The notes under the pieces: generated by a model | What the model was told of the DNA's origin: nothing | Database searches by the model: none | Seen by the model: only the letters and a program-made list of their open reading frames with translations | Shown here: piece by piece, positions 8,547 through 42,107 of the stretch | How positions within the stretch are numbered: the first letter of the stretch is position 1 | Layout: every line of letters starts with the position of its first letter | Assembly (NCBI GenBank): GCA_009692425.1 | Contig: SHZF01000017.1 | Coordinates: 5,714 to 69,713 of the forward strand | DNA length: 64,000 nt | Origin: Myxococcales bacterium | GTDB taxonomy: Bacteria; Myxococcota_A; UBA9042 | Direction: 5' to 3' | Position numbers and translations under genes: made by a program

Positions 8547-8553
8547 CGGAACG

Positions 8554-24263: not shown

Positions 24264-24300
24264 CTCCTGGCGTTGGCTCGGCGCGCTCCAACCTGACGCG

Positions 24301-24711: not shown

Positions 24712-24716
24712 GGGGT

Positions 24717-26378: not shown

Positions 26379-26386
26379 TCAATTTC

Positions 26387-28273
26387 CTACGATCCAAGAG
26401 ACTTCCGCACCGACGCCACCATGCGCTCCTGCTCCTTGAGATCCTGAGCGAGCACGATCGCGATGTCGTTCATCAGTTCGATGGAGTCGCCCAGATCGCC
26501 GGCCGCCGCCTTGTGCTTCTCCATCTGTTGCGCGTAGCGCTTGATCAGGTTGGCATTCGACGCCGACGCCGACACCGTATCGGCCAGCGCTTCGAGGGTC
26601 TCGGGCACATCGGCCGGCACGGTCGGCCCCTTGGGCGCTTGGTTCTCGGCGAGTGCTTCGTTCAGCCGCACTTCGGTGTCGCGCAGCTTGGCTTCGAGGG
26701 TCTCGACCCGCTTCTGGCCCTGGGCGAGTTCGGCTTCGAGCGCTTTCGTCGCCGCGCCCGTCGCCTCGACGGCTTCGAACTTGACCTGGGCGCGCGCGAG
26801 TTCCTTCTGCACGCTCGACAGTTCCTCGCGCAGTCGCTCGATTTCGCGCGCCTTCGCCTTGAAGTCGGGGTGCTCGCTCACATCGACCAACGCGGCCGGC
26901 TTGCGTTCGGCGGCTGTCTTGGCGGCCTCCAGTTCGGCCTTCATCGCCTCGGCACTGCGCTGGGCTTGCATGGCGCGCTCCTGCAGTTCGTCCACGCGGC
27001 GGGTCGCGTTGTGGTAGTCCTGCAACAACTGGCGCTTTTCGTGTTCCAAGTCGCTGATGCCGACGCCCATGCGGACCTGCCTGATTTCCATGTCCTTTTC
27101 GCGCAGGTCGATCTGCAATTGCTGGATCTTGTCTTCCTTCTCCTGAATGACTTCCTGTAGCAGGTTGATCTTGCGCTCCAGACGCCCTTGGTCGTTGGAC
27201 TCGCGGTTGAAGCTCGACTGCAGCGACTCATTCTCGTCGCGGGCGGCGCGCAGTTCGTACTCCAACAGGTCGAGCTGCCGCTGCAACTCCTCGATCTGTC
27301 GGTCTTTCTGCGTGATGCGGACCTTCAGCCCAGACAACTGCTCCGTGGCGTCGGTCGCCTTCTCGCGTGCGGCCTGGATTTGCTGCTCGAACTCGGTGGC
27401 GCGCCGCTCTGCCTCGAACAGCCGGTCTTCCTGCTCGCGCAATTCCGCCCGCGTCTTTTCGAGCTCCTTCTGGATGACCTGGTTGTGCTCCTTGAGCTTG
27501 ACGTACTTCTCGCTCAGGCCCTCCAACTCGACTGAATAGCGCATCGCGCGCGGCTCGATCGCCTTGACGTCGGCCTCCGCTCGCGTCGCCCGCGCCTCGG
27601 CCTCGGCGAGCGACTGTTCGAGCGCGCGCACCCGGCGGCCCAGTTCACCCGCGTCGCCACCGCCAGCGGACGTCGGCGCCGGTCGAGCGGTCGGCTGCGA
27701 TACCACGGGGGCCTGACCCGTCGGCACGGCAGTCCGCGCCGCGGCGGGCCGGTCCGCGGACTGCGGTTCGGGGCGGGCACTCGGACCGGCCGCCGGGCTC
27801 GGTTCGCGCCGGGTGGTCGCCGCGCCGATGGCGCCTGCGCGGGCCGCGTGCTGCTGCGTCTGCTTGTCGGCCACCAATGCGACGAGCTTGGCCTGATCTT
27901 CGGCCTTGAAGCCTGTGGTCGGCATTGCCTTGGCGACGGGTCGTTCGGCTTGCGGCGCACCGCCGCCATCCTTTTTCGATGAACCTGGGCGCAGGAAGAT
28001 TTCGAGCACTTCGCCGCAACGGACCGTGTCGCCCTCGCGGATGACTGCGCGCTGGGTGCGCTCGTTGTTGACGAAGCTGCCGTTCGACGAGCCGAGGTCC
28101 TTGATGTAGTAGCCGTCCTCGTCCCAACCGATGCGGCCGTGGTTGCGCGAAACGGTTGTCTCTTTCGAGTAGACGGTCGACCCCGGGTTGCGCCCGATGG
28201 TCACCGGTTCCATGTCCGGCCCCGCCGGGTGCTGGACCCAGTTGCCCGACACGTCGCGCCACTCAAGGTACAT
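26387..28273 (-). CDS. FHA-domain protein with about 400-aa coiled-coil
   Basis: N-terminal FHA motifs VTIGRNPGSTVYSKETTVSRNHGRIGWDEDGYYIKDLGSSNGSFVNNERT. The rest is a heptad-rich E/R/K/Q segment. Its stop lies 9 nt before the AAA gene start. Confidence 0.75.
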   Translation of the reverse strand: MYLEWRDVSGNWVQHPAGPDMEPVTIGRNPGSTVYSKETTVSRNHGRIGWDEDGYYIKDLGSSNGSFVNNERTQRAVIREGDTVRCGEVLEIFLRPGSSKKDGGGAPQAERPVAKAMPTTGFKAEDQAKLVALVADKQTQQHAARAGAIGAATTRREPSPAAGPSARPEPQSADRPAAARTAVPTGQAPVVSQPTARPAPTSAGGGDAGELGRRVRALEQSLAEAEARATRAEADVKAIEPRAMRYSVELEGLSEKYVKLKEHNQVIQKELEKTRAELREQEDRLFEAERRATEFEQQIQAAREKATDATEQLSGLKVRITQKDRQIEELQRQLDLLEYELRAARDENESLQSSFNRESNDQGRLERKINLLQEVIQEKEDKIQQLQIDLREKDMEIRQVRMGVGISDLEHEKRQLLQDYHNATRRVDELQERAMQAQRSAEAMKAELEAAKTAAERKPAALVDVSEHPDFKAKAREIERLREELSSVQKELARAQVKFEAVEATGAATKALEAELAQGQKRVETLEAKLRDTEVRLNEALAENQAPKGPTVPADVPETLEALADTVSASASNANLIKRYAQQMEKHKAAAGDLGDSIELMNDIAIVLAQDLKEQERMVASVRKSLGS

Positions 28274-28376
28274 GCGGCCAAGCCTCCGGGAGCGCGTACC
28301 CTGTACAGCCGAATTCGCGCGCCCCGAGTCTAGTGCAGCGTCAACCGCCCGTGCAAGGTACGGCGGGAACCGGTGT

Positions 28377-29567
28377 TCAGAAACCCTTCGCCATCACGGC
28401 GGGCATGCCGCGCTCGATCTCGCGCACGCTGTGGGTCATGACAGCCAAGCTGTGCCGGTCATAGGCTTCGACAACCATCGCGATGCCGATCTGCTCGTCG
28501 GGAAAGTCGCGCAGGTCCTTGACCTGGGCCCGCCGCAGCCCGTCGCCGCGCCACATGATCTCGAAGCGGTTGCCGCGCGCCACGTTGTCGTCGGCACCCT
28601 TGTCGATGTAGACGTAGTGCCAGGCGCCCGCCGCCGTTGTCTCGTGGTGGAAATCGACGATCGTGCCGACGAGTTCGACCTTGTTCGGCACCGGCTTCAC
28701 CAGTTGCAGTGGCTCGAACACGTTGGTGACGAGGTCGCCGCGCGAAATTTCGCTGTAGGCACGCGTCAGCAGCACCGTCGCCAGCGGGCGCGCGGTTGCC
28801 AGCACCTTGCCCTCGCCCAAGAAGTTGATCTTGAAGCCGACGACCTTGCCCGTCAGGGGATGCACGACCTCGCGCTCGACCCGGTAGAAGGTGAAGCGGT
28901 CGGCGTCGCGCACGCACGGCCCCGAGAACACTTCGGGTTCGGCCGGGTTCTTGTCGAGCGAGACGATCTCACCGTCCCTGGAGTCGGCCGCGTCGTCGGC
29001 CTTGGCCTTGTCGGTCGCTTCGCGGCAGCGCCGCATCAGGAAACGCACGTACACTTCATCCAACGTGCCGAGCATGTTGCGCTCTTCGCGGCTGGCCTCG
29101 ATCGTGCCCGACTCCCGGTAGTCGCGGCTGGTGATGTACCCCACGCGGCGCGCGAGCTCCGTTGGGGCCGACTTGACGCCTTCGTAGCGCGAGCCGGCAA
29201 ACGTCAGCGCCTTCTGGGCGATACCCTGCGGCGGCTTGCGCGACAGGTAGAGCAGATCGCCGGCGTAGATCAGGTGCGGATTCGTGATCTGCGGGTTGTA
29301 CGACCACAGCGACGGCCAATACCACGGCTCGTCGTAGAGGCCCTCGGCAATGGACCACAGCGTGTCGCCCGGCTCGACGACGTAGGTGCGCTCGCCGGCC
29401 ACGTTCGACTGCTCGACGCGGATGGCCGGCTGCGACACGTCGGGCACGGACACCTGGGCGGCGGCGAGGCCCGGCACAGCAGCCGCAAGCACAGCGGTCG
29501 CAAGCACGGCGCTTGCAAGCACAGCGCTCGCGTGCGCGGCGATGGCGGCGGTGGCGCGCGCGCTCAT
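28377..29567 (-). CDS. LysM-domain secreted protein
   Basis: Signal peptide, then LysM motif YVVEPGDTLWSIAEGLYDEPWYWPSLWSYNPQITNPHLIYAGDLLYL. Large C-terminal domain of unknown function. Confidence 0.7.
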   Translation of the reverse strand: MSARATAAIAAHASAVLASAVLATAVLAAAVPGLAAAQVSVPDVSQPAIRVEQSNVAGERTYVVEPGDTLWSIAEGLYDEPWYWPSLWSYNPQITNPHLIYAGDLLYLSRKPPQGIAQKALTFAGSRYEGVKSAPTELARRVGYITSRDYRESGTIEASREERNMLGTLDEVYVRFLMRRCREATDKAKADDAADSRDGEIVSLDKNPAEPEVFSGPCVRDADRFTFYRVEREVVHPLTGKVVGFKINFLGEGKVLATARPLATVLLTRAYSEISRGDLVTNVFEPLQLVKPVPNKVELVGTIVDFHHETTAAGAWHYVYIDKGADDNVARGNRFEIMWRGDGLRRAQVKDLRDFPDEQIGIAMVVEAYDRHSLAVMTHSVREIERGMPAVMAKGF

Positions 29568-30553
29568 GGCTCGCCCCTCGGTTTCTGCAGTTCACCGGCG
29601 GCCAACTGCCCTGCCGGCGTCGTCGGGAACTGGCGCACCAGCTGCCGCAGCACGTCGTGGGCACCCTTGTCGTCGCCGAGTTGGCTGTACGAGCGCCCGA
29701 GCTTGAGCAGGGCGTCGGGCACCTTGTTCGCGCGCGGGTACTCCTTGCAGACCCGCAAGAAGGCCTGGGCCGCCTTGAGCCACAAGGACTGCGCGTAATA
29801 GCTCTCGCCAATCCAATAGAGCGCGTTGTCGGCGAGCTCGTGGTCGGGGTAGAGGCGCTGCAAGTTCTCGAATTTCGTGCGTGCCGGCTGCAACTGCCCG
29901 CTGTCGAGCAGGGCCTTGGCGTGGGTGTAGAGCGCGGCGGCGGGGTCGAGGTTGGGGCGCAGCGGCACGGCCGACGTGTCCTGCTGTGGCGGCGGGTCGT
30001 CGGCAGGTCCGCTGGGTCCATTGGCGGGTTCGGGGTCGGCGCCGGTACCGGGCACGAGGATGTCGGGGCTGCCATCGCGCCGGGCGCTGCGGACGGGCTC
30101 CGTCGCCGTGCGGCCAGGCTGGGCCCCTTCGATCGGCGGCACGGGCCCGGGCTCGACGCGCACGGTCGGCAGCCGCGGAATCCAACCGTCGTCTCGGCTG
30201 CCATCGGCGCGGCGCCCGCCATCGACGCGGGCACTGTCGACCCGCGCGGTGTCGATCTTCTCTTCGATCATGACGAGGCGGTTGCGAAACTCATCGAACT
30301 GCACGCGAGCGGCGGCCTGGCTGCGCTTGAGGTCATCGAGTTCGTCGCGCAGGGCCCGCGTATCGCTTTGGGCCTGGGCCAACTGAGCACCGCTGCAGGC
30401 CCATGCCGACACGGCGCACGCGATCGCCACAACGAGCGCGGCGCGCTGGCGCCAAGTGGTGCCACGGGCGTGTCGGGTGGCGGGGTCAGAGGCGGGCAGA
30501 AGTTCCGTTCGCACGCAATCTCGCTCGGGCGCTGGGAAGGGCCCCGCGGCCAT
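29564..30553 (-). CDS. YbgF/CpoB-like periplasmic TPR protein (TM anchor, coiled coil, TPR)
   Basis: TM segment AALVVAIACAVSAWA, a coiled-coil, then C-terminal TPR-like repeats (YPDHELADNALYWIGESYYAQ ... YPRANKVPDALLKLGRSYSQLGD) as in Tol-Pal-associated CpoB. The start is uncertain. Confidence 0.55.
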   Translation of the reverse strand: MAAGPFPAPERDCVRTELLPASDPATRHARGTTWRQRAALVVAIACAVSAWACSGAQLAQAQSDTRALRDELDDLKRSQAAARVQFDEFRNRLVMIEEKIDTARVDSARVDGGRRADGSRDDGWIPRLPTVRVEPGPVPPIEGAQPGRTATEPVRSARRDGSPDILVPGTGADPEPANGPSGPADDPPPQQDTSAVPLRPNLDPAAALYTHAKALLDSGQLQPARTKFENLQRLYPDHELADNALYWIGESYYAQSLWLKAAQAFLRVCKEYPRANKVPDALLKLGRSYSQLGDDKGAHDVLRQLVRQFPTTPAGQLAAGELQKPRGEP

Positions 30554-30610
30554 ACCCCCGGGGACAGGGTCAGCCGATACCTTCGCGATCTACCGGGCGG
30601 GCGCGGGAAG

Positions 30611-31045
30611 TCAAGATTTGCCGGACGATCCGCCCGCTGCGGCGCGCAAAACCCGCCACGCAGCGCGGACGATGGCAACCGGTCGAGGGGCGACGGTGGC
30701 CCACGCGAGGCCGGTGCGCCGGGCGATTGCAGCCACCACGCCCATGCCAGGGACCGGGACCCGCCCGCCTCGCCACTCGATCGCGGCCACGCGACCGATG
30801 ATCGCAGACGCGGGCAGTTCCGGGTCGGCGGCCAGGTTCGTATCGCCGCGCGTGCGGATGCGATTGCCGTCGATGGCACGCACGCGGTGGACGAACACGG
30901 CGCCCGTGCGCGTGCCGACGAAAGCAACGACGTCGCCCGGACACAAGGCGGCAACTCCCACGCGCTCCAGGCCGACGCGCAAGGGGGCGGCGAGCGGCCA
31001 CATCGAGCGGCCGGCGACGTCGTACCAGTCCAATGGGTCGCACAC
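30611..31045 (-). CDS. S26/S24-family (signal-peptidase-like) serine peptidase, last gene of the rSAM cassette
   Basis: GRSMWPLAA matches the signal-peptidase Ser box (SM-P). CPGDVVAFVG...VHRVRAIDGNRIRTRGDTNLAADPE resembles the S26/S24 beta-barrel, including the conserved basic residue. Start tentatively GTG (VCDPLDWYDVAGRSMWP) at 31045. The longer 489-aa ORF overlaps the rSAM gene out of frame and is rejected. Confidence 0.5.
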   Translation of the reverse strand: MCDPLDWYDVAGRSMWPLAAPLRVGLERVGVAALCPGDVVAFVGTRTGAVFVHRVRAIDGNRIRTRGDTNLAADPELPASAIIGRVAAIEWRGGRVPVPGMGVVAAIARRTGLAWATVAPRPVAIVRAAWRVLRAAAGGSSGKS

Positions 31046-31131
31046 TTTGCCGGGAGGCGTCACGTTGCCGGGGAGCGTGTCGTTCACTTTGCCGGGGAGC
31101 GTGTCGTTCACTTTGCCGGGGGCTGCACGCG
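31040..31131 (-). repeat. three to four degenerate copies of a 24-bp unit spanning the rSAM stop codon
   Basis: cactttgccggggagcgtgtcgtt occurs perfectly at 31085-31108, with degenerate copies immediately before and after. On the minus strand the rSAM 3' end ...CCGGCAAAGTGA is re-iterated as ACGACACGCTCCCCGGCAAAGTGA. Confidence 0.7.
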
Positions 31132-32286
31132 GGCGCCCTGGCCCTTCTTTGGGCGGTAGATCGGAAAAACGAACCGCTCCGGGCGCGGCAGGCGTGGGCC
31201 GCCGCTGGGCACGCCTTGCCACACCTCCGGACCCAGCGGTTGGCCGGTCGCGGCTTCGTAGGCGGCCATCCGGTAGCGTGTTTGCTCGTGGAACTGCACG
31301 GGAGCCTTGCGAAAGTCGCCTGTCTGCTTGAACGCCTCGCCAGGGCAGTACGCACAATGGCCGCTGCCGCCACACGACGTGCAACTCGTCCGATCGCGGT
31401 TCTTCCACGCCACGATCTGCTGGCGCTCCACCGAGCCGCGCCAGATGGCGGCAAACGACTGTTCGCGCAGGTTGCCCAGCGCCATGGGGAACTGCGCGCA
31501 CGGCCACACCGCGCCATCGGGGGTCACGTAGGCCCGGCTGCGACCGGCACTGCACGCGCCCTGGCCCTGGCGTTCCGACACCGGTGGCCGCGGGGGAGCC
31601 GGCGTCAAGCGCAGGCGTTTCTCCTCGGCGCGCTGGAAGTCGGCCGGCGGCATGGCGAGCACGTCGAGGTCCTCGTTGCCCAGGTGGTTGCGGAAGATGT
31701 CGTTGCCGAACACCACGTTGCAGCCCTGCGCGCTGAAGCAGGCGAAGAGGGCTTCCATCTCGTCGATCGTGTTGCTCTGCACGACGCAACTGACGCGCAC
31801 GGCCACGCCCGCCGCGCGCAGTTCGGCGATGCCCGCGCACGTCGCCGCCAACGATCCGGCGCGCTGGGTAAAGGCGTCGTGCACGGCGGGGCGCAACGAG
31901 TAGACGCTGACATGGACTTGCGCGATGCGCAGCGCGGCGAGGTGGCGGGCGCGCGCGGCGTCGATCAACCCGGCGTGCGATTTCAGGGTCTGCGCGAACC
32001 CGCGCTGGGCCGCATACGCCAGCAGTTCGTCCATGTCGGCGCGTTCGAACAGTTCGCCGCCCGACCAGAGCAGCTTCCACACGCCGAAGTCGGCAAGTTG
32101 GTCGACGAGGGCCCGCAGTTCAGCCCCCGTCATCTCCGGCCAGGTCGTGCGGTTGTCGAGGTAGCAGTGTTTGCACGCCAGTCCACAGCGGTAGGTCGCG
32201 TCGATGTGGACGGTCTGCGGGACGTCGGCGCGCTGCACCGCGGCGTGCAAGGCCTGTGCGATTTCCCTGGAAGCGGCCGTGATCAC
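31108..32286 (-). CDS. radical SAM / SPASM-domain peptide-modifying enzyme
   Basis: CGLACKHC is the canonical CxxxCxxC, with HIDATYR ahead of it. C-terminal SPASM-type Cys cluster: CSAGRSRAYVTPDGAVWPC...CTSCGGSGHCAYCPG. I chose the GTG start at 32286 because it overlaps the HprK-like stop as GTGA (translational coupling). The alternative ATG at 32355 would overlap that gene by 73 nt. Confidence 0.8.
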   Translation of the reverse strand: MITAASREIAQALHAAVQRADVPQTVHIDATYRCGLACKHCYLDNRTTWPEMTGAELRALVDQLADFGVWKLLWSGGELFERADMDELLAYAAQRGFAQTLKSHAGLIDAARARHLAALRIAQVHVSVYSLRPAVHDAFTQRAGSLAATCAGIAELRAAGVAVRVSCVVQSNTIDEMEALFACFSAQGCNVVFGNDIFRNHLGNEDLDVLAMPPADFQRAEEKRLRLTPAPPRPPVSERQGQGACSAGRSRAYVTPDGAVWPCAQFPMALGNLREQSFAAIWRGSVERQQIVAWKNRDRTSCTSCGGSGHCAYCPGEAFKQTGDFRKAPVQFHEQTRYRMAAYEAATGQPLGPEVWQGVPSGGPRLPRPERFVFPIYRPKKGQGARVQPPAK

Positions 32287-33158
32287 GCGGACTCCTGCTG
32301 GGCTGCGTACGCCGCCAGGGTCTCGGCAATGGTCTCTGGCGAATCGTCGAGACAATGCGACAGGAGTCCCACCGGAACGTCCCGACCGAGGGCCGCCGCA
32401 GCGTCGAGCAACCAGGGCGTGGCGGCGCCGCCGGCATAGTAGGCCCGCGCCAGGACGAGTGCGGCCCGCTCACCTGCAGGCGCGGCGACGACCTCGGTGC
32501 GGGTGCGCACGTTGGGCAGCAACACGAACAGGCCCCCGAGCGGCAGCACAAGCGCGTGTTCGCCAGGCAGGCCGCGCCACTCCGCATGGTGCCAGGCGGT
32601 CCAACCTGCCGGCGTCGGCACAAGGTACGCGATCTCGTCGTGGCTCGCCACGCCCGGAAACCGCCTGGCGAGCGTCGTCTTGCCCACTCCGCTGTGCCCC
32701 GCGATGACCCACGCACGCCCGCCCGCCTGCAAGGTCGCCGCGTGCAGGGCGATGCCGCCGCGCACCAGGACTTCTGCGAGGCCCGCCGTGAGCATGCCTT
32801 CGACGGCCGCGTCGTGGACCCCTTCCGGCTGTTCGTGGGGCACGTGCAGGGTCAGCGTTCCTTGGGCCGAGGTCCGGTCCAACTCGACCGACGCCCACGG
32901 GGCGCGCGCGGCATAGCCGTTGGCGTCAAAGCGACTGAACACGACGGATTCTTGGCGGCTGCCAGGCACCGCGCGGTAGCCAAACCGGATCGCAGCGGGC
33001 CCTTGTCGTTCCAGCCAACGTCGCCTGAACACAGGCCCGCAGTGGGCCGGAACCTCGAATTGCAGCGTCACGGGTCCAAACCGGACATCCGGACGCCGAA
33101 CCGGCAGGCCGCGCGCGTGAAGGTCTTCGAGCAGCGAACCCGCTCGGCTGCCGGGCAT
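32283..33158 (-). CDS. HPr-kinase C-terminal-domain-like P-loop protein (HprK-related)
   Basis: HAATLQAGGRAWVIAGHSGVGKTTLA is a P-loop in the HprK/P C-domain context. 291 aa. The start lies 3 nt after the precursor ORF stop. Confidence 0.7.
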   Translation of the reverse strand: MPGSRAGSLLEDLHARGLPVRRPDVRFGPVTLQFEVPAHCGPVFRRRWLERQGPAAIRFGYRAVPGSRQESVVFSRFDANGYAARAPWASVELDRTSAQGTLTLHVPHEQPEGVHDAAVEGMLTAGLAEVLVRGGIALHAATLQAGGRAWVIAGHSGVGKTTLARRFPGVASHDEIAYLVPTPAGWTAWHHAEWRGLPGEHALVLPLGGLFVLLPNVRTRTEVVAAPAGERAALVLARAYYAGGAATPWLLDAAAALGRDVPVGLLSHCLDDSPETIAETLAAYAAQQESA

Positions 33159-33160
33159 CG

Positions 33161-33334
33161 TCAGTCCGTCGTGGAGTTAAGGGTGTCGCAGCCAGGGATG
33201 TTGGTACCCAGCAATTCGAGCAGTTCGGCGTCGACCGTCTGGATCGCTGGCGCCGCGTAGGGAGCCTTGGCGGGCACACCTGTGCTGCCGTCGCTCTCGC
33301 CCTGCGGCGTGTTCGGAGAGTCGTTCATCTGCAT
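33161..33334 (-). CDS. candidate RiPP precursor peptide (57 aa)
   Basis: MQMNDSPNTPQGESDGSTGVPAKAPYAAPAIQTVDAELLELLGTNIPGCDTLNSTTD. AGGAG RBS (reverse complement of 33340-33344) 6 nt upstream. Stop TGA at 33161-33163 lies 3 nt before the HprK-like start. Leader-like amphipathic ELLELL segment; single Cys in a C-terminal GCDTLNSTTD tail. Confidence 0.5.
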   Translation of the reverse strand: MQMNDSPNTPQGESDGSTGVPAKAPYAAPAIQTVDAELLELLGTNIPGCDTLNSTTD

Positions 33335-33393
33335 GGCCCTGCTCCTGGTGGCGCGCCTCAGCGCCGCGCCAAAGGGGAAAAACGCCCCCGTCG

Positions 33394-36300
33394 TCAGTAC
33401 ATGATCACGAGCGACCCGTCCGTGGATCCGATGGCCGCGTCCGCGACGCCGTCGCCCGTGAAGTCGTCGAGCGGCGCGATGCCCACACCGCCCCATGAGT
33501 TCGAACCGATGCCCCACTTCGGGTCGCCGGGCTTGAACGGGTTGCCGAATTCGATGTCGGCCACGGCGTAGCTCGCGGCAGTTCCCGTCGCCGAAGCTCC
33601 GGCCGCGCCGGGCCGCACCAAACCGTGCCGAATGGTCACGATGGACGATGCGCCTGGCATGAAAAACGCCGGCCGGCCGTGGATCAGGTCGACACTGCCG
33701 CCGCCAGCCGCGCCGACCTTGCCGAAGCGCTGCAGCCCGGCCACGAATGCGTCGGCCACAAACCCGTGGGGAACCTGGTAGAGCCCCGTTTCGCCGGGCA
33801 CCGGCGTAGTTAGCAGGAACGCCACGCCGCCGAGCGATTTGTTCAGCGCACTCCCGCGCAGCCAGTAGATGCCGCCCGTCTTGCCGAACGAAGAGCCGCC
33901 CTGCTGCTGGATCACGAGATCGACCAGGCCGTCGCCATCGAACTCGACGGCATCCATCTGGAAGCCGATCACGTTCGCGCCGAACTGCGTCGCCGACGTC
34001 CCCGCGCTCACGTGGACGGCACTCGCGCTCGCTGGCAGCGTGGTGTCGTACTGGGCAAACTCGAGCACCTGATCCCCCGCCGCCGGCCGCCCCTTGACGA
34101 GGCGCACGCACTCCGCCGACGTCGACTGTTGGATGCCCACGTCTTCATACTGGGTGCCCTTGCCGTCGCCATCGAGCAGCAGGTTGCCGAGGCCCCAGAT
34201 CGCCGCCCCGAAGACTGGCGCACTGACCGGATTCTTGATGTTCAGCGTGATGACATTGTTGTCCTTGCGCTGCGTGGCGTTGTCGATGTCGATCGTCAGC
34301 GTCTTGCCGTCCGCGAGCGTCGCGTTGCCGGGCACGATCAGGACACGGGTGTAGGTGACCGTCGCCGTCGGAAAGGTGGTGACGCCGAACGAGTCGATCG
34401 GCAGGCCGGCCGCCGACTTGGCTCCGGTGAAGTTGCCGGTCACGTTCATGCGCAGGACGCCGAACGGCAACGGGTTCACGATGCCCGTCACGATCAGCGC
34501 CGGCGTCTTGCCCAGCGTGCCGGCCTTCTTGCCCAGGTACACGTGCACGCTGCGCAGCTTGCCCACGCCGATGCCGTTGCCGACCACGAGATCGCCGATG
34601 CCGTCGCCGTTCATGTCGGCTGCGCGCCCCGTCGTGGCACCCAGGCCGCCGTCCTTGTTGTCGAAGCAGGTGTAGCCAGTGCCGTCGAGGCTGTCGATCG
34701 TCAGCGCCGCCAACAGGCCGTCGGCGCCCGCCTTGCGGCCGTAGACGACACACAGGGGAGCTTTTTCGCCGCCGCCCGCCACGAAGTCCGCCAGGCCGTC
34801 GCCGTTGAGATCGCCGACTGGGAAAGCCCGCGAACGGAACTCGGGCACGTCGAACAGGCCCTTGGTCACCACCTGCAGGTAGCGCAGCCGCAAGTCCTTC
34901 GTCGTGATGACGTTGGAAACCGGCGAGCGGTTGCCCGCGGCGTCGACCGCCTGGATCGCGAATGCGTACTGGGTGATGCCGTCGTCGACCATCGGATTGA
35001 ACTTGCAGACGTCCGAGCCCACGCGCGGGTCGGGACCGTCTACCTGAATCGTTTCGTTGCCGCCAGCGTCCGTCGGGGTCGAAATCTTCGCAAACGGCAG
35101 GGCCTTGGCATCGCACGCCGCCTTGAACTCGGTCTCGTTGGCGAGCGCCGTCTTCTTGACGTAGCGCACGTCGTAGCTCGCCGCCTTGCCCGTCAGCCCG
35201 TCGTCGCCAACCGCCGTGAAGCGCAGCGCGATGCCGGGCAGCCGCGGCTTGAGGTCGCTCGCCTGCAAGGGCAGGAGCACGGGCGCGGCCGGCGGCGTCC
35301 AGTCCGCCTTGATCGCAATGGAGGCCTCGGCCGTATTGCCCAGCGCATCTTGCACGGTGGCGCGCACGATGTTGGTCGCGTTCTCCTGCAAGGTCGCGTG
35401 CTGCACCTCGACGGTGGCCGTACCGGCGGTGTCGAACGTCTTCGGCAACGTGACGGACTTCTGTGCCAGGTCGGCAGCCGCGCCACCCGCGACCGTGCGC
35501 TGCAGCGCAGTCACCTTGCCACCCTTGAGGCCGCTGTCGGTGACCTGCAAGAGCAAGTGGAGTTGGTGGCCGGGCGTGGCGGGGTCGGTGTCGGACGGTT
35601 TGCCGACCGTGCCGCTGACGCCCCCTGGGGTCGCGACGCTCTGCACGGTGCCTGCAACCCACTGTGCCACGGGATTCGTCAAGTCGGCGAGCACACCGAT
35701 CGCCCCCGTGCTGCCCTTTGCGGTGCCGACGGTCACGCCCTCGAGCGAGAACTTGGCGCCATCGGCCACCGTCACATCGAAGGTGGCGACGGACGCGGTC
35801 GGCGCCTTGCTCGCGACCTCCTTGCCATCCTTCAACAGCTGGACCGCCGTGACCGTGCCGCACGGGCCGAAGAACTCCACCATGACCTTGGCAGCCACGC
35901 TCGCGCAGTTCTTGCCCTTGTCGGCGCAGGACTGTGTCGTGAAGGCGCCGCCTTGCGGAAGCCCCTTCATCGACAGGAGGCAGCCCGACAGCTTGACGGC
36001 GAAACCCTGCTCGACCTTGGCCGTGTTGCCCGAGGAGTCCTTCGCCGTCAGCCGCGCCGAATAGTTCGGGGTGGCGCCGAACGGCACGGTCAGCAAGATC
36101 GTCGGCTCCTGCTTGCCGGGTGCGGTGACCGTGCCGCTGCCCACGGGCGCGTAGCCGGCACACTTGGCGAACGTCGCATCGCAGTCCGCGCCCAATTCGA
36201 GCGTCCATGATACAGCGTCGGTCGTGGTGAACTGCACCGTGACCTGGTAACCGCCCACGGCGGGCGCCGCGTCGGCAGCGTCAGCAAACGTCGCACCCTG

Positions 36301-39300
36301 CGCAGGTGCATCGATCTTCAACACGGGGGGCTTGGTATCGACCCCAACGACGGCCGGCGTCGTCTGGACCGTCGCGGTGTTGCCGCACGCGTCGATGAGC
36401 TCTGCCGTCAGTTCATGCTGACCGTCACCGAGCACGCCGTACTTCGCGTGGGGATACTTGGTCGCGCCGCTGGCGAACGCTTCGGTCGCCTTCGTCACGC
36501 CGGCGTCCTTCAACACCGCGGCTTTGCCCTCGACATCGACCGTGCCGGCGTCCGCGATCAGTTCGATGTCGAGTGGATCGCCCGCCAGCAGGGTCGCCTT
36601 GCCTGTAGCCGGCACCGCAAACGTCGCCGCCGGCTTCGTCGTGTTGACTTGCCACGTCTGCGCGGCCGACTCCTTGCCCTTGTTGCCGACCGCGTCCAGC
36701 GCCTTGGCGACGACCGTGACGGCCCCTTCGACCGGGATCGGCACGTTGAGGGTGACGGTCTTGTTCTGCGACTGCGCCGTCGCCGCGATGGCATCGTTGA
36801 CCAGCACGAACACCAGCGCATCCTCGTTGGCCAAGGTGGCGACGAACTTGAACGTGCCGCCGGCCTTCGTGTCGGGTGCGGCGTCGAGCTTGCCCGACAG
36901 GCAACCGGCGGGCACATCGGCAGCGCTCGGCCCGACCAGCGACGCCAGCACCGGCACGATGCTGTCGAGCACGATGGTGCGGTCCTTGCCGGTGATGGAC
37001 GGGCTGCCGAGCGACGACGTCCAGTCGATGCCGGTCCCTGCGTCGGACGTCTCGGCGGTGAAGTGGTACTTGCCGTCCGTCAGCGCCGACATGTCAAAAT
37101 CGATCAGGTTGTTCTGCGACTTCGTGATCGAGACGACTTCGTTGTACCCGGCTTGCTTGCACGGGCCCTTGCCGACGCCCGGCGTGTCGGAGCACAGCCG
37201 CACCAGCGCGCCCGACGGCATGCCGATCACGTTGACGGTGATGGTCTTGGACGAATCCGCGTTCCACGGGGTCGCACACGTTCCGCCCGCGCAGACGCCG
37301 AGGCCGCACTCCGCCGTCGCCGTGCACGGCTTGGCCACGATGCCCAGGGGGGACTGGAACTGGATTTCAGGCTGCTTCGAAATCACAGTCGCGACCACGG
37401 TCTTCGAAGCCGGGTTGCCCGCCGCGTCTGCGGTCGCGAACACGATCTTGACCTTGTTGCCGTCGGGCAGCGTGACGACCCCGAAGCTCACCGCACCGAT
37501 CTGACCGTCGGACACGTCGGCAGCGACCGTGGCCGGATAGCTGCCGTTCTTGGCGCCGTTGTCGTCGAACACGTCGGCAACGACCTTCGTGCCGGCGCTG
37601 ACGCCCGACACCTGCACCTGCAGGTTGACCTGCATGCCGTCCGCCGGGTTCTGGTTCACGTCGTCGAGCGCCGCCAGCGTGAAGGTCGCGGCGCCGCCCT
37701 TGGCCGGCGAAGACAGGCTGCCGAAGACCGGCGCGGTGCGGTCGATCTTGATCGTGACGACTTTGGATGTCGCCGTCTGGTTGGCCGCATCGACCACCTT
37801 GGCGGTCAGTTCACACGTCGTCTGATCGGCCAGCACGATGCCGGTGAACGGCGCTTTGCCCGCAGCTACGACGCCCGCCACCGCCTTGGATGCCGCGCCG
37901 CACTTGACGGTCAGGGTCACCGCGCTGTCGTCCTCGGCATCCGTCGTCGCCACATCGACCTGGGTCACACAGTTCGCCACGCCTGGCAGACACGCAGCCG
38001 CCGTCAGGTTCAGGTTCGACCCGTCGGTCGGCGCGGTGATCGTGGCCGTGGGCAACTTGTTCTTGAAGCCGAGGTCGATCGCCGCGGAGTAGCCGATCGC
38101 CTTGGGCGTGGCGGCGAGGTAGGCGCCGACTTGCAGCGTAGTTGAGCCCTTCGACAGGCCGCTGATTTCGAACGAGTACGTGCCATCGCCGACATCGGTC
38201 ACCGGGGCAGCGACCTTGGCGCCGTTGACGAGCACGTCGAGCGTCGCGCCGGGCATGGCCGCGCCGTTGGGCTTGGCGACCTTGACCTTGACCGTCAGCT
38301 TGTCGGTGATCACGCTGCCTGAGCCAAGCGGTTGCAGGAACGTGACGACCGGCGCCTCGGAAACGAGCGTGATCGTGCTGACCGCCGTCTTGGTGACGTT
38401 GCCGACCGTGTCGGTGGCGGTCGCATGGACCGCATTCGGTCCCGCCTGCAGCGAGATGCCCTCGAAGACCACCTTGCCCTTGCCGAGCAGGCCGGATTGA
38501 CAGGAAACCTTGGCGCCGCCGACGTATACGCACGCACTGGCCGCGTCGGCACTGGTCACGGTCAATTCGACATCGATCTGGTAGCCGGGCTTGGGGTCCG
38601 AGTCGAGGTCGTCGGCAGCCGTCAGGGTCGCTTTCGAAGGCAGCGTGATGGCGACGCTCGGCCCCTTGGAGTCGAGCGTGAAGTTGCGCTTGACGGTGGA
38701 ACAGGTCTGCTCCGAAGCGACGTTGCCGAGCAGATCGGTGGCGTCGAACGTGATGACGTAGGCGCCATCGGGCAGCGTCTCGGCCGGCGCTCCGACTTGG
38801 AGGGCGAGCGTGGTCGACAGCAGACCCTTCTTGGGCTGGCCGACCGCCAGCGCCGGATACGCGCCCCCGCCCGGCACGGCAATGACGGCCTTGACGTCGC
38901 GGTTCTCGAGGTTCGTGGTCGTCAGCGCCACGTTGAACGACGCCGTGGTCAGCGTGACGTCGCCTGCCGGCAGCGCCACTTTCAAGCATGGCGCGGGCAG
39001 GGCCACGGTGACGGCAACGTCCTTTTCCGACTGGCTGGGGTTCGGCGCATTGTCCTTGGCCATGCACGTCACAGCGGAGCCCAGGCTCTCCACGTCGATG
39101 ACGACGGGGACCGCCAACGAAGTCGCGGCTGCGTCGGAAAACTTCGCCGAGCCCGATGCCGTCGGCGGATACGCCACGTTTGGCCCGGACTTGCGGCAGA
39201 AGATCGACACCTCCGTGCTGAGGTCCGGTGCGGCCTGAAAGTTCACCGTCACGGTCGTCTCGTACGTGAGCGCCGTTTCGGGCTTGCCGTCGTTCTTGGC

Positions 39301-40530
39301 GTACAGCACCGAGCCGCCGACCGGGTCTGCGATGACCATCTTCCCCTGCCCGGCAAAGACCACGTACGTCGTCGACAGCGACTTTTCGAGGCCGCAGCCA
39401 TTCTTCGCGGTGATCTGCAGCGCGTAGCTGCCCGATGACGGAAACGAGACGGGAATCGAGAACGTATTGTCGATGTCGAGGCTGACGGCCGGCAGGTCCT
39501 TGCCGTCGAGCTTGGCCGTGATGCCGTTCTTGTCGGCCGTCGTCAGCGTCGATGCGGTGCCGACGATCACGGTCTGGATGCCGGGCGCGGCCGCGTCCTT
39601 GTCGTCGCTGTTCTTCAGCACATTCTTCTTGTCCGGCGTGGGCTGCAGGATCGTCAGGGTCGGCGCCTTCGTGCCGACGCTCACCGCCAGCGGGTCCGAA
39701 GGGGTCGAGGGGCGGCCCGGATGGTCCTCGTCGCTGACGAACGCCTGCACGGTCGCGGTCTTGCCGTCGACTTCATCGTTGCTGGGCGGCGTGAGCGTCG
39801 CCGTGATGAGTGCGGAACCGCCGACGAGCAACACCTTGGCCGTATCGGACTTCGCGCCCTCCGTCGTCGTGACCGCGAGCCGGGCGTGCGTGCAGCCGAC
39901 CGACTTCGTCGTTACCTTGAAGTTGGCCTGCAGGCCGGGCGTCTGAGGGTCCACGTCCGTATTCTGGCAGCCGGCCGTGAACGCCTTGACGTCGGCCAGG
40001 CAACTGTCGGTGCAGTCGAGCTTGATCGACTTGATCTCTGACGAGGCGTCGCCGCCGGGCACCTTCGCGACCACGGAGATGTTCGGAGCCACCGTGCTGC
40101 ACTCCAGCGTGATCTTGAGGCGCGCTGCATTGCTCTGCGCCTTGGCGGTCGCCTTCGTCACGCCGTCGATCTGGACTTGGAGGTCGGTGCCGTTCGGCAC
40201 GTTCGTCGTCGTCACAACGACATCGACCTGCACGCCCAGTTCCGGGTACTTGTCTGCGTCGAGTGCGACCGTCGCCGTCGATGCGGTTTCGAGCACGTTG
40301 CCGTCCTTCGTTTCGACGAAAAAGGCAACGGTGGGCTTGACGACCGGGACGTCCTGCGTGTCGCCGCCGCCCGCGTCCGACGTCGCGTCGGCGGGGCACG
40401 CCACTTTGCCGCAGGGCCCCCCGACAGGTTCGTCATCGCTACAGGCTGCGAGTCCCGCGCACAGGCTGGCGGCGACAAGCGCTCGCAAGGACACGGAAAC
40501 ATGGCCGTGCTGCTTGAGTACCCCGATCAT
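33394..40530 (-). CDS. giant cell-surface lipoprotein (2378 aa) with Ig-like repeats and C-terminal FG-GAP/VCBS repeats
   Basis: AAGGAGAG RBS, then MIGVLKQHGHVSVSLRALVAASLCAGLAAC (lipobox). A long beta-rich T/A/V/G-rich repeat region follows. C-terminal Ca-binding FG-GAP-like motifs: DLNGDGLADFVAGG, DMNGDGIGDLVVGN, FDGDGLVDLVIQQ, DDFTGDGVADAAIGS. Plus-strand ORFs across this span are antisense shadows. Confidence 0.8.
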   Translation of the reverse strand: MIGVLKQHGHVSVSLRALVAASLCAGLAACSDDEPVGGPCGKVACPADATSDAGGGDTQDVPVVKPTVAFFVETKDGNVLETASTATVALDADKYPELGVQVDVVVTTTNVPNGTDLQVQIDGVTKATAKAQSNAARLKITLECSTVAPNISVVAKVPGGDASSEIKSIKLDCTDSCLADVKAFTAGCQNTDVDPQTPGLQANFKVTTKSVGCTHARLAVTTTEGAKSDTAKVLLVGGSALITATLTPPSNDEVDGKTATVQAFVSDEDHPGRPSTPSDPLAVSVGTKAPTLTILQPTPDKKNVLKNSDDKDAAAPGIQTVIVGTASTLTTADKNGITAKLDGKDLPAVSLDIDNTFSIPVSFPSSGSYALQITAKNGCGLEKSLSTTYVVFAGQGKMVIADPVGGSVLYAKNDGKPETALTYETTVTVNFQAAPDLSTEVSIFCRKSGPNVAYPPTASGSAKFSDAAATSLAVPVVIDVESLGSAVTCMAKDNAPNPSQSEKDVAVTVALPAPCLKVALPAGDVTLTTASFNVALTTTNLENRDVKAVIAVPGGGAYPALAVGQPKKGLLSTTLALQVGAPAETLPDGAYVITFDATDLLGNVASEQTCSTVKRNFTLDSKGPSVAITLPSKATLTAADDLDSDPKPGYQIDVELTVTSADAASACVYVGGAKVSCQSGLLGKGKVVFEGISLQAGPNAVHATATDTVGNVTKTAVSTITLVSEAPVVTFLQPLGSGSVITDKLTVKVKVAKPNGAAMPGATLDVLVNGAKVAAPVTDVGDGTYSFEISGLSKGSTTLQVGAYLAATPKAIGYSAAIDLGFKNKLPTATITAPTDGSNLNLTAAACLPGVANCVTQVDVATTDAEDDSAVTLTVKCGAASKAVAGVVAAGKAPFTGIVLADQTTCELTAKVVDAANQTATSKVVTIKIDRTAPVFGSLSSPAKGGAATFTLAALDDVNQNPADGMQVNLQVQVSGVSAGTKVVADVFDDNGAKNGSYPATVAADVSDGQIGAVSFGVVTLPDGNKVKIVFATADAAGNPASKTVVATVISKQPEIQFQSPLGIVAKPCTATAECGLGVCAGGTCATPWNADSSKTITVNVIGMPSGALVRLCSDTPGVGKGPCKQAGYNEVVSITKSQNNLIDFDMSALTDGKYHFTAETSDAGTGIDWTSSLGSPSITGKDRTIVLDSIVPVLASLVGPSAADVPAGCLSGKLDAAPDTKAGGTFKFVATLANEDALVFVLVNDAIAATAQSQNKTVTLNVPIPVEGAVTVVAKALDAVGNKGKESAAQTWQVNTTKPAATFAVPATGKATLLAGDPLDIELIADAGTVDVEGKAAVLKDAGVTKATEAFASGATKYPHAKYGVLGDGQHELTAELIDACGNTATVQTTPAVVGVDTKPPVLKIDAPAQGATFADAADAAPAVGGYQVTVQFTTTDAVSWTLELGADCDATFAKCAGYAPVGSGTVTAPGKQEPTILLTVPFGATPNYSARLTAKDSSGNTAKVEQGFAVKLSGCLLSMKGLPQGGAFTTQSCADKGKNCASVAAKVMVEFFGPCGTVTAVQLLKDGKEVASKAPTASVATFDVTVADGAKFSLEGVTVGTAKGSTGAIGVLADLTNPVAQWVAGTVQSVATPGGVSGTVGKPSDTDPATPGHQLHLLLQVTDSGLKGGKVTALQRTVAGGAAADLAQKSVTLPKTFDTAGTATVEVQHATLQENATNIVRATVQDALGNTAEASIAIKADWTPPAAPVLLPLQASDLKPRLPGIALRFTAVGDDGLTGKAASYDVRYVKKTALANETEFKAACDAKALPFAKISTPTDAGGNETIQVDGPDPRVGSDVCKFNPMVDDGITQYAFAIQAVDAAGNRSPVSNVITTKDLRLRYLQVVTKGLFDVPEFRSRAFPVGDLNGDGLADFVAGGGEKAPLCVVYGRKAGADGLLAALTIDSLDGTGYTCFDNKDGGLGATTGRAADMNGDGIGDLVVGNGIGVGKLRSVHVYLGKKAGTLGKTPALIVTGIVNPLPFGVLRMNVTGNFTGAKSAAGLPIDSFGVTTFPTATVTYTRVLIVPGNATLADGKTLTIDIDNATQRKDNNVITLNIKNPVSAPVFGAAIWGLGNLLLDGDGKGTQYEDVGIQQSTSAECVRLVKGRPAAGDQVLEFAQYDTTLPASASAVHVSAGTSATQFGANVIGFQMDAVEFDGDGLVDLVIQQQGGSSFGKTGGIYWLRGSALNKSLGGVAFLLTTPVPGETGLYQVPHGFVADAFVAGLQRFGKVGAAGGGSVDLIHGRPAFFMPGASSIVTIRHGLVRPGAAGASATGTAASYAVADIEFGNPFKPGDPKWGIGSNSWGGVGIAPLDDFTGDGVADAAIGSTDGSLVIMY

Positions 40531-40642
40531 GCTCTCTCCTTGTTCCTTCGGCCCGGTCCGCTGCAATTGAGTTCAAGGCGATCCAGTGGGTTAGTGCGAT
40601 CTGGGTCTGCGGCGACAGGCTCCGACTCGGGGGGCCGTGCGC

Positions 40643-40936
40643 TCAGACCGGTTGGCGCTCCAGCACGCGGCGGACGACCAACTCATCCAAGAAATTCAAG
40701 ATGTCTGCTAGCGCGCGCGCCAAGCCGACGTCGTAGCGTGCGGCAACGAGCCCAGCCAGGGCCACGGCATCGGCCGTGCCGGCGGCGATGGCTTCGAACA
40801 CATCGACGGCGGTGCCGGGCAGCAGGCGGTGAAACGCGCGGTCGTCCGTCACGACGAAGACTTCGCCCCCGACGCAGCGGTGTGCGGCGAGTGGATGGAC
40901 GCGGTAGCGAACGGCGGTGTCGGTTGGGGTGCTCAT
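40643..40936 (-). CDS. PqqD-family protein (RiPP recognition element-like peptide chaperone)
   Basis: MSTPTDTAVRYRVHPLAAHRCVGGEVFVVTDDRAFHRLLPGTAVDVFEAIAAGTADAVALAGLVAARYDVGLARALADILNFLDELVVRRVLERQ matches the PqqD length and pattern. The longer 251-aa ORF N-terminus is R/P-rich and rejected. Confidence 0.65.
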   Translation of the reverse strand: MSTPTDTAVRYRVHPLAAHRCVGGEVFVVTDDRAFHRLLPGTAVDVFEAIAAGTADAVALAGLVAARYDVGLARALADILNFLDELVVRRVLERQPV

Positions 40937-41425
40937 CGCAGTCAAGCCTTGGGACGGGCAAAAGCCAGCGCCGAATGCGTGTAGGTGGGACGCGGGCCGC
41001 TCGCTGCGGCTGTTGCCCCGGACTTGGTGGCCGACGGCGGCCAAAAAGTTGCGCGCACAATTCTTTGGCTCAGCACCAGCGGCGAGCGCTGAATCCGGCC
41101 TCGTGCCGCAGGGTTCGAATTCGGTCAGCACCCTCCCGACGAGCGGCGCACAGTCGAAGCCGGTCCCGACCCACGACCGACAATGCCCGCTGCCGTGCAT
41201 TGTGCAGCACGGGGGTGGCACTGACAAGGGCACCCGCCGCCCCCGGTCCACCGCCTTCGGCGCAGTTCTGCGTTGTCGCTGCGGAATCGGCGTTCGAAGT
41301 ACCGGGTGTCCGTCTTCAGGCCGACTCCTTGCTCCGCCTTGATCGGCATCCGAATTCGGCGGCCGGGGATGGGAGGCGGTGGTGAATCCTGGCCGCAAGC
41401 CAGCAACACGATTGCAGACTGCCGG

Positions 41426-42097
41426 TCATACGGGCTGGTGGCGCTCCGCGTGGGAATCCTGCAGGTAGCGGGGCAGCAGGTCGTGTGCAGCAAGGCTGGG
41501 CAGGGATTCTGCAAGCTCCGCGATCGCACGTGCGACGGGGGCATCGGCGACACCCACGTCGGTGGCTGCCGGGCCGGCTGCGGCGCGGAGCCACCCTGCG
41601 GCATGCCACCCCGAACCGGCCACTGCCACCGCGCGGCCGCTGGCACGGTGCGGCCACCACCCTGCGAAATCGTCTGCCGTCAGGAGCGTTTCTTCACATG
41701 CGATGCCGGCGTCGGACCAGCCGACGTACGCGACGCCGGTGCGGGCGGGCAGGGCCACCGCGCACGGCCCGGTCCAGCCCGCAGCACGCAGCGCAGCGAC
41801 GAGGGTCGGCAGAGACCCGACGCCGACGCAAGGCACGGCGTGGGCCCAGGCGAGGGCGCGCGCGGTCGCCAGGCCCATGCGCAAGCCGGTAAACGAGCCA
41901 GGTCCGATGTCGCACGCGATGCGCTGCAAGTCCGCGGCATCCAGTCGGGCCGCCGCCAGCAGGGCCCAGATCGCCTCGGTGAGTGGCCGTGCCTGGCCGC
42001 GCGCCACCATGCAGGTGCGCCCTGCAGCGAACCCCGCGTCTGTGCGCAGCCACACGCCGACCGTGGGCGTGGACGTCGTGATCGCCAACACGTTCAA
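41426..42097 (-). CDS. tsaB: tRNA threonylcarbamoyladenosine biosynthesis protein TsaB (YeaZ)
   Basis: MNVLAITTSTPTVGVWL...IACDIGPGSFTGLRMGLATARALAWAHAVPCVGVGSL is the inactive Kae1/TsaD paralog pattern. Confidence 0.8.
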   Translation of the reverse strand: MNVLAITTSTPTVGVWLRTDAGFAAGRTCMVARGQARPLTEAIWALLAAARLDAADLQRIACDIGPGSFTGLRMGLATARALAWAHAVPCVGVGSLPTLVAALRAAGWTGPCAVALPARTGVAYVGWSDAGIACEETLLTADDFAGWWPHRASGRAVAVAGSGWHAAGWLRAAAGPAATDVGVADAPVARAIAELAESLPSLAAHDLLPRYLQDSHAERHQPV

Positions 42098-42107
42098 CGG
42101 ACGGCCC

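Follow-up and report, generated by a model that had tools for sequence, protein, structure and literature searches.

The closest described system to the gene cluster treated here is that of the linear polyphosphorylated peptides (LPPs) of Bacillota, the LppA/B/K/S system (Nat Commun 2026;17:6633, PMC13381572). Its core genes encode LppB, a discrete recognition element (RRE) for peptides made by ribosomes and modified post-translationally (RiPPs), the HprK-like kinase LppK, which phosphorylates Ser3 of the core, the signal-peptidase-I-like (SpI-like) protease LppS, a nucleoside triphosphate (NTP)-transferase, as well as an MsbA-like exporter (PMC13381572). LPP leaders share the consensus YxxPxVLxHQxIxFET; discrete lasso RREs recognise the motif [Y/W]xxPx[L/V/I/F/A], YxxP is essential for binding by LppB, and F(-3), E(-2) and T(-1) are required for RRE-assisted cleavage by LppS (PMC13381572). 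SpI-like proteases had previously been undescribed in such pathways, LPPs are patchily distributed and confined to Bacillota, and the paper makes no mention of radical S-adenosylmethionine (SAM) enzymes or of Myxococcota (PMC13381572). Literature searches on SynChlorMet, on ScmC with radical SAM, and on HprK with RiPP and radical SAM found nothing. Here we describe a small open reading frame (ORF) beside genes for an HprK-like protein and a radical-SAM/SPASM enzyme in a 64,000-nucleotide stretch (the window) of contig SHZF01000017.1 from an uncultured Myxococcales bacterium, which probably encodes the substrate of a related pathway.

The ORF lies on the minus strand at 33161..33334 (positions are those of the window) and comprises 57 codons plus TGA, reading directly from an ATG at 33334-33332 to the stop at 33163-33161; homologous ORFs occupy the same position at 49 loci. 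Its 57-aa product, MQMNDSPNTPQGESDGSTGVPAKAPYAAPAIQTVDAELLELLGTNIPGCDTLNSTTD, contains a single cysteine, Cys49 (codon 33190-33188). We think that this product is probably the precursor that serves as substrate to a pathway for modifying ribosomal peptides, because the ORF is coding and conserved in position, its product has a bipartite layout and carries a motif of RRE-binding type, and modifying enzymes are conserved along with it. Judged by sequence comparison, the peptide family is previously undescribed, and its cluster is a new combination of known parts.

A direct protein search with the peptide returned only the identical sequence, on another assembly; small ORFs of this kind are mostly uncalled or unindexed. 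Two metagenome contigs with HprK-like homologues 72-74% identical to that of the window each carry a 60-62-aa ORF in the same place, in which the changes relative to the window peptide fall mostly at the N-terminus and the extreme C-terminus and the middle block is kept. On long contigs with radical-SAM orthologues of 43-57% identity, independent pipelines had called a gene of 53-64 aa at the position of the small ORF. Scanning one genome per species with an alignment of the radical-SAM enzyme gave 45 Myxococcota/Bradymonadia loci, and a hidden Markov model (HMM) built from eight peptides was then searched, with a second round, against the six-frame ORFs of all loci. Matches were significant at about 35 loci, all on the right strand and all ending just 5' of the HprK-like gene, and the most divergent peptides were added by the second round and by inspection, on the basis of motif and position. 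The family totals 49 loci and 44 distinct sequences, drawn from Myxococcota/Bradymonadia loci and metagenome contigs. Scans of genome contigs and metagenome contigs with a three-sequence HprK-like alignment found nothing, and a broader HprK-like alignment offered no conserved run on which patterns could be based; the loci were recovered with the radical-SAM alignment. Pfam and NCBIfam models gave zero matches to the family peptides. Near distantly related radical-SAM genes (Omnitrophota, archaea and others; loci L053-L062), a search for the pattern [Y/W]xxP...Cys gave no convincing candidate. Locus L054 (2462-7142), from an Omnitrophota metagenome-assembled genome (MAG), carries a radical-SAM/SPASM gene of 22% identity together with S26-like, ScmC-like and PqqD-like genes; the [Y/W]xxP...Cys pattern was not found in any peptide there, and the enzyme module may, from this locus, extend beyond Myxococcota.

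All 44 peptides follow one layout: a variable polar N-terminus, a motif box, an LxxLLx[S/T]-like segment and a hypervariable tail that contains Cys and is poor in Lys and Arg. In the window peptide, the polar/acidic N-terminal region M1-A22 (33269..33334, minus strand) is poorly conserved in sequence and length, with a ratio of nonsynonymous to synonymous substitution rates (dN/dS) of 0.46 over ten roughly independent pairs; the same pairs gave 0.35 for the motif part. It is followed by a predicted leader recognition box, K23-A-P-Y26-A-A-P29-A-I31-Q-T33 (33236..33268, minus strand), whose family form is [R/K]-x-x-[Y/W]-x-x-P-x-[V/I/L]-x-[S/T]. The Y/W, P and V/I/L positions occur in 44/44 peptides, a count to be read knowing that these same three positions formed the regular expression by which peptides were registered; S/T at Y+7 is found in 43/44 and R/K at Y-3 in 38/44. 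Next comes a hydrophobic segment with a candidate cleavage box, L38-L-E-L41-L42-G43-T44 (33203..33223, minus strand; family LxxLLx[S/T]), which is conserved in the main clade, and then the predicted core N45-IPG-C49-DTLNSTTD57 (33164..33202, minus strand). Across the family the first Cys lies 17-27 residues past the Y/W, usually 18-23, and tails span 2-22 residues with 1-4 Cys. One tail Cys is present in 17 peptides, that of the window included, and two to four in the other 27. Of tail residues, 14% are Cys, compared with 0.4% for the N-terminal part; C, P, G, D and T abound in the tails, and K and R are nearly missing. The peptides of two loci, L042 and L048, have Trp in place of Tyr in the motif and three Cys (e.g. 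...KRAWKTPRVETSEVFNKAALSCCVTPFNTVEGSSGAGLPFCPG). The tail is hypervariable between lineages, yet it is the most constrained part between close relatives (dN/dS 0.18), a pattern such as a diversifying functional core is expected to show. The window peptide as a whole is predicted to be largely unstructured and polar.

An earlier note, written from the sequence of the window alone, had proposed a precursor peptide here, and the family-wide layout together with protein-level conservation in synteny supports that proposal. The leader-like N-terminal region and amphipathic segment that it described recur throughout the family as a variable N-terminus and a conserved leader containing IQTV...LLELLG, and its single-Cys C-terminal core agrees with the window peptide and with the presence of at least one tail Cys in 44/44 homologues. 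Its assignment of this Cys as thioether acceptor has to be reversed, as Cys is the donor in thioether chemistry. The strongest leader signature, Y26-A-A-P29-A-I31, which matches [Y/W]xxPx[L/V/I/F/A] (PMC13381572), had gone unflagged. Conservation of the protein in syntenic loci, named beforehand in the note as the comparison that could refute the proposal, was found at 49 loci, with in-frame indels and dN/dS <1. Separately, we considered a lipoprotein signal peptide for the strings resembling "L-A-S-G-C" ahead of the Cys and rejected it: what precedes these strings is polar/acidic and includes no hydrophobic h-region, a canonical lipobox is absent in most members, and the co-encoded protease is SPase-I-like, not LspA-like.

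Taken alone, the ORF is no evidence of a gene and does not exceed chance expectation, because the DNA is very GC-rich, ORFs are abundant (a 14-kb stretch is overlapped by 114 that reach 30 aa or more) and the peptide's reading frame meets no stop over 316 codons upstream; what carries weight is the comparison with relatives. Relative to the two closest relatives, every indel is a multiple of 3, and GC content by codon position in the called frame is 0.82 at third positions (GC3), 0.60 at first (GC1) and 0.52 at second (GC2). The Shine-Dalgarno-like AGGAG named in the earlier note lies 7 nt 5' of the ATG (33342..33346, minus strand), and the peptide stop is followed by 2 nt (CG), one fewer than the note had counted, and then by the ATG of the HprK-like gene at 33158. 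Among 37 distinct homologues, 24 have GGAG, GAGG or AGGA 4-18 nt 5' of the chosen start, an underestimate given that several starts were chosen too far upstream. The ORF is also called as a gene on an independent European Nucleotide Archive (ENA) assembly. A regulatory-RNA reading was tried and dropped: there is no Rfam match in the peptide region, an intergenic hairpin 5' of the ORF is no better than shuffled sequences (z = -0.16), and no promoter or terminator was found between the ORF and the giant gene upstream of it. Based on the in-frame indels, dN/dS <1, GC3 of 0.82 and Shine-Dalgarno-like sites, a non-coding reading is excluded for practical purposes.

The gene immediately downstream encodes a P-loop protein of the HprK superfamily (ScmC-like, 291 aa; 32283..33158, minus strand), assigned from sub-threshold NCBIfam matches. 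For the window protein these are ScmC (1.5e-6), HprK_rel_B (0.0015) and HprK_rel_A (0.003); among 14 members of its family, HprK_rel_B matched 13, ScmC 12 and HprK_rel_A 10, in every case below cut-off. Precomputed PF27840 (ScmC) matches exist on HprK-like homologues, and a PDB sequence search returned P-loop and PEPCK-type matches only. The P-loop G-x-S-x-x-G-K-x-T is invariant (consensus GxSGAGK[S/T]T, its Ala nearly invariant). Asp174, in an H-D-E context, is nearly invariant as well, at a position which we take to resemble the one where HPr kinase, after its P-loop, has its catalytic Asp. In the NCBI record of the source MAG the HprK-like protein is 219 aa long (P0002, 75% coverage), N-terminally short compared with the 291-aa form, which is the one conserved in relatives; the called protein for the small precursor gene is found on the ENA assembly only.

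The radical-SAM/SPASM enzyme follows (392 aa; 31108..32286, minus strand; Pfam Radical_SAM 4.7e-14, SPASM 7.8e-13), with an alternative longer TTG start possible at 32355. Its gene overlaps the HprK-like gene by 4 nt, and its stop overlaps the protease gene by 4 nt. The enzyme reached the cut-off of no NCBIfam family and has no fused N-terminal RRE. By sequence, the solved proteins closest to it are SkfB (1e-31), PqqE, SuiB, MoaA, CteB and anSME, and by fold SkfB, PqqE, BlsE, SuiB, anSME and CteB, using a model with a predicted local distance difference test score (pLDDT) of 84.5. Sequence and modelled fold thus place it among the SPASM/Twitch peptide maturases, a placement that does not discriminate between their chemistries. 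Family members share an invariant CxxxCxxC and six further Cys, in C-x12-G-x4-C and C-x2-C-x5-C-x2-C. Past the SPASM domain, they also carry a C-terminal extension with the consensus ...RPxxFVFPIYRPxKGRGARV, in which F, P, I and R are invariant; its extreme end was modelled with low confidence.

The last gene of this run encodes an S26B (archaeal/endoplasmic reticulum-type) signal-peptidase-I-like protease of about 166 aa (30611..31111, minus strand) with invariant G-x-S-M-x-P, H-R and G-D boxes. The TIGR02228 model (sigpep_I_arch) matched 10/12 members, at best with 3e-9 and below the model cut-off; for the window protein the archaeal-type signal peptidase I match is weak. In the PDB the best matches were signal peptidase I (4me8) and SEC11A (7p2p), and the protease profile aligns with SEC11A through the HR and GD boxes. 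The Ser-to-His spacing of 39 residues equals that of S29/H68 in LppS, and on this sequence evidence the S26B-like protein is probably the leader peptidase. Several gene callers start this protease at a Met right after the catalytic Ser (MWPL...; L003 11245, L015 10308, L022 11233 and others); given a conserved in-frame G-R-S upstream, the true protease starts earlier and the annotated products lack the nucleophile. Where the 3' end of the radical-SAM gene meets the 5' end of the protease gene there is a 24-bp tandem repeat (31060-31121, 2.6 copies, 97% matches), which encodes PGKVNDTL-PGKVNDTL in the protease frame, and an overlapping 18-bp repeat at 31043-31078.

The discrete RRE is a PqqD-like protein of about 97 aa (40643..40936, minus strand, start codon inferred), scoring 25.5 bits against Pfam PqqD (gathering score 23.4), with homologues that reach 1.8e-10 and 1.9e-9. 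Its gene is present in nearly all related loci. In the window it lies 7 kb 5' of the peptide gene, past a giant gene, and in L042 and L048 it adjoins the peptide gene. The giant gene encodes a predicted lipoprotein of 2390 aa (33394..40566, minus strand; Pfam Big_13, Big_3_3, FG-GAP and PKD) that combines Ig-like, PKD and FG-GAP repeats with a LAAC lipobox-like motif near its N-terminus. It is found between the RRE and peptide genes, at about 2,350-2,390 aa, in about 40 loci (e.g. L003-L039, at about 1800-8900), and can still be detected close to the radical-SAM gene at several divergent loci. The giant lipoprotein may be the peptide's partner or target, or an ancient insertion.

Gene order on long contigs is RseP, TsaB, RRE, giant protein, small ORF, HprK-like, radical SAM, small protease, CpoB, LysM, FHA, AAA and DUF1257. 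The block RseP-TsaB-[RRE-giant-peptide-HprK-like-rSAM-protease]-CpoB/YbgF-LysM-FHA-AAA-DUF1257-DUF2997 (rSAM, radical SAM; about 24300-42100 in the window) keeps its order across L003-L039 at radical-SAM identities of 40-58%. Comparison of the loci indicates that this conservation is vertical and housekeeping-like, in contrast to LPP and lasso clusters, which are reported to be patchily distributed. Among Bradymonadia-type loci that are divergent, the flanks change, yet the genes for RRE, peptide, HprK-like protein, radical-SAM enzyme and protease remain grouped; the peptide co-occurs with RRE, HprK-like, radical-SAM/SPASM and S26B-like genes over radical-SAM identities of 31-58%. It always stands beside the HprK-like and radical-SAM/SPASM genes, and a protease gene is present in most sufficiently long loci. 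L042 and L048 have the order RRE, peptide, HprK-like, radical SAM, protease with no giant gene between, which by gene content is the arrangement of a self-contained peptide-modification module.

These observations suggest the following pathway. The genes for the RRE, the peptide, the HprK-like protein, the radical-SAM/SPASM enzyme and the S26B-like protease all lie on the minus strand and, from this layout, would be co-transcribed, the last three being translationally coupled through their 4-nt overlaps. Judging from the motif, Y26-x-x-P29-x-I31 in the leader would add a beta-strand to the discrete RRE on binding, in the manner of lasso B1 and LppB, and the RRE would then present the C-terminal tail to the radical-SAM/SPASM enzyme, acting at or through Cys49. 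The leading candidate for the product of this step is an intramolecular thioether from Cys49 to a nearby residue of NIPGCDTLNSTTD, since the nearest relatives of the enzyme include thioether-forming maturases and the Cys is the sole invariant core residue; we put this forward tentatively, at somewhat less than even odds. A thioether of the sacti- or ranthipeptide type is plausible, and nothing in these comparisons sets it apart from other radical-SAM chemistry. The HprK-like protein, with ATP, may phosphorylate a Ser or Thr of the precursor, be it T33 (Y+7), T44 or a Ser/Thr of the core, the least certain step and one drawn by analogy. Lastly, the S26B-like protease together with the RRE would cut the leader at or just after L42-G43-T44, much as LppS cuts after F-E-T, which would release a modified peptide of about 9-13 residues, roughly NIPGCDTLNSTTD. 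The cluster is vertically fixed across a large Myxococcota/Bradymonadia clade, which is unusual for such clusters, beside a 2,400-residue FG-GAP surface lipoprotein and Tol-Pal/LysM envelope genes, and its product might therefore have an envelope or surface role, not that of an accessory antibiotic. That radical-SAM/SPASM modification of the invariant Cys, joined to RRE, HprK-like and signal-peptidase-like processing machinery otherwise known from Bacillota LPPs only, defines an undescribed ribosomal peptide class, whose product has a conserved cell-envelope or surface function, perhaps with the giant protein, is a broader proposition that we find possible but doubtful.

Several observations weigh against reading the peptide as the precursor in such a pathway. 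No core residue beyond the Cys is conserved, hence no acceptor residue can be named, and tails such as CGGYGG and CF offer almost no candidate acceptor. Several cores contain no Ser or Thr (e.g. GCPPEAPLQE), so core phosphorylation cannot be universal and any universal phosphosite would lie in the leader, at T33 or T44. The HprK-like protein reaches no curated family cut-off, and its AlphaFold2 model, built from a three-sequence alignment, was unusable (pLDDT 47). No RRE columns were found that track Tyr-type versus Trp-type leaders, the conserved block has no visible exporter gene, and all peptide homologues come from uncultured MAGs. Furthermore, with fixed neighbours and vertical inheritance, co-occurrence of these genes could partly be shared ancestry; the arrangement in L042 and L048 argues against this.

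Among the alternatives to the precursor reading, the one that survives best, though we consider it unlikely, is that the peptide is a scaffold from which a small cofactor or housekeeping molecule derives, in the way that pyrroloquinoline quinone (PQQ) does from PqqA and mycofactocin from MftA, and that no secreted bioactive peptide results. A PqqD-type RRE with a SPASM radical-SAM enzyme is the PQQ/mycofactocin toolkit, and vertical inheritance throughout the clade, a fixed position among envelope and housekeeping genes (RseP, TsaB, CpoB, LysM) and the lack of an exporter would all suit a cofactor. However, cofactor precursors keep their reacting residues invariant, whereas the peptides here keep one Cys in a tail that varies in length, Cys number and sequence, and the NCBIfam PqqE and mycofactocin models all score below cut-off.

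It is also improbable that the peptide is an LPP-like substrate of the HprK-like kinase and the S26B-like protease only, giving a linear phosphopeptide, with the target of the radical-SAM enzyme elsewhere, for instance in the giant FG-GAP lipoprotein. The RRE, HprK-like protein, SpI-like protease and YxxPxV leader are the exact LPP core set, which needs no radical-SAM enzyme, and in about 40 loci the cluster encloses the giant gene, which can still be detected close to the radical-SAM gene where loci are divergent. Set against this, translational coupling ties the radical-SAM gene to its HprK-like and protease neighbours on either side, and the gene is retained in L042 and L048, loci with no giant gene between RRE and peptide; the invariant, enriched Cys in a tail poor in Lys and Arg has no role in LPP chemistry, and Ser3 of the LPP core is missing here.

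Modification is not proved by conservation and purifying selection on their own, and a conserved small protein with a non-substrate role (a regulator, a chaperone or a partner of the giant protein) could merely lie beside the enzymes. We regard this as quite improbable given that the leader carries an RRE-binding motif and an RRE is always co-encoded, that a conserved leader with a hypervariable Cys tail is typical of precursors, that the peptide is predicted to be polar and unstructured, and that it occurs also without the giant gene next to it. Finally, a chance ORF in GC-rich DNA, with the stretch being a non-coding 5' leader of the HprK-like gene, has next to no probability: although ORFs of this length abound and only the shortened HprK-like gene (P0002, 219 aa) seems to be called in the source MAG's NCBI record, the protein is conserved in 49 loci though synonymous sites are near saturation, and in-frame indels, dN/dS <1, GC3 of 0.82, a Shine-Dalgarno site, no Rfam match and no significant RNA fold all oppose it.

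If the peptide is indeed the precursor, the family supplies concrete substrates (44 sequences, a leader motif and an invariant Cys) for a radical-SAM/SPASM family with no curated model, and it may hint where the precursors of ScmC-type (SynChlorMet-like) cassettes are to be sought. The pairing of a signal-peptidase-like leader protease with an HprK-like protein would be extended from Bacillota to Myxococcota and linked to radical-SAM chemistry, and the vertical, envelope-associated context raises the question of a housekeeping role for the modified peptide. With the giant gene left out, the minimal set of peptide, RRE, HprK-like, radical-SAM and protease genes takes up less than 3.5 kb, compact enough to be reconstituted directly in a heterologous host.

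Compared with LPPs, the leaders of the window family share YxxPx[V/I/L] followed about 10-12 residues on by a hydrophobic-x-[S/T] box, and both systems combine a precursor conserved N-terminally and variable C-terminally with a discrete RRE and an SpI-like protease with Ser, His and Asp boxes. The counterpart of the kinase LppK would be the HprK-like protein, whose matches to HprK-related models lie below cut-off. The window leader lacks the rest of the LPP motif (VLxHQxIxFET). A radical-SAM/SPASM enzyme is present here and not in LPP clusters, and the core, which starts N-I-P, is defined by Cys, not by Ser3. The Pfam-annotated gene lists of six long loci contain no NTP-transferase or MsbA-like exporter. 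The Myxococcota cluster is also vertical and syntenic, with a giant surface-protein gene embedded in it, whereas LPP clusters are patchy.

Sacti- and ranthipeptide systems (SkfA/SkfB, SboA/AlbA, CteA/CteB, SCIFF) likewise place a SPASM/Twitch maturase beside a small precursor with a Cys core, and SkfB, the solved protein nearest to the window enzyme, makes a single Cys thioether. Their maturases, however, carry a fused N-terminal RRE, which in the window is a separate gene, and unlike the window these systems have neither an HprK-like protein nor an S26B protease. NCBIfam models of sactipeptide, ranthipeptide and SCIFF maturases scored the window enzyme below cut-off (StsB 87 versus 625 bits, AlbA 76 versus 850 bits). 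The SynChlorMet (Scm) cassette (NCBIfam TIGR04249-04251) matches the window in joining a PqqD homologue, a ScmC-like HprK-related protein and a PqqE-like radical-SAM/SPASM enzyme, and ScmC is the best NCBIfam match of the window P-loop protein. The scores nevertheless fall far short (27.8 versus 125 bits for ScmC, TIGR04249; 76.6 versus 400 bits for ScmE), and the window has one radical-SAM gene where SynChlorMet has two (ScmE, ScmF), together with an S26B protease and an identifiable precursor family. To our knowledge, no precursor has been identified for the SynChlorMet cassette, as its NCBIfam description has it.

Lasso peptide clusters resemble the window in the [Y/W]xxPx[L/V/I] leader motif and the discrete PqqD-like RRE, as in B1 recognition, and the paeninodin type among them in the HprK-related kinase family TIGR04355, the most frequent match of the P-loop protein (13/14). 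The gene lists of the conserved block, in contrast, include no B2 cysteine protease and no asparagine-synthetase-like cyclase, and the peptides have no Thr at -2 followed by a macrolactam-forming core. In the QhpC/QhpD system, the SPASM radical-SAM enzyme QhpD forms Cys-to-Asp/Glu thioethers within QhpC, the small gamma subunit of quinohemoprotein amine dehydrogenase, which bears a leader and then takes on a cellular, not an antibiotic, role. Tails of the window family are rich in Cys and Asp, and the resemblance to QhpC/QhpD is one of idea only, as there is no sequence relation to QhpC and there are no amine dehydrogenase genes. Together, these comparisons of sequence and gene content indicate that the cluster lies outside LPPs, sacti/ranthipeptides, SynChlorMet and lasso peptides by the features that define each of them, and that it would work like a hybrid of LPP and sacti/ranthipeptide-type clusters.

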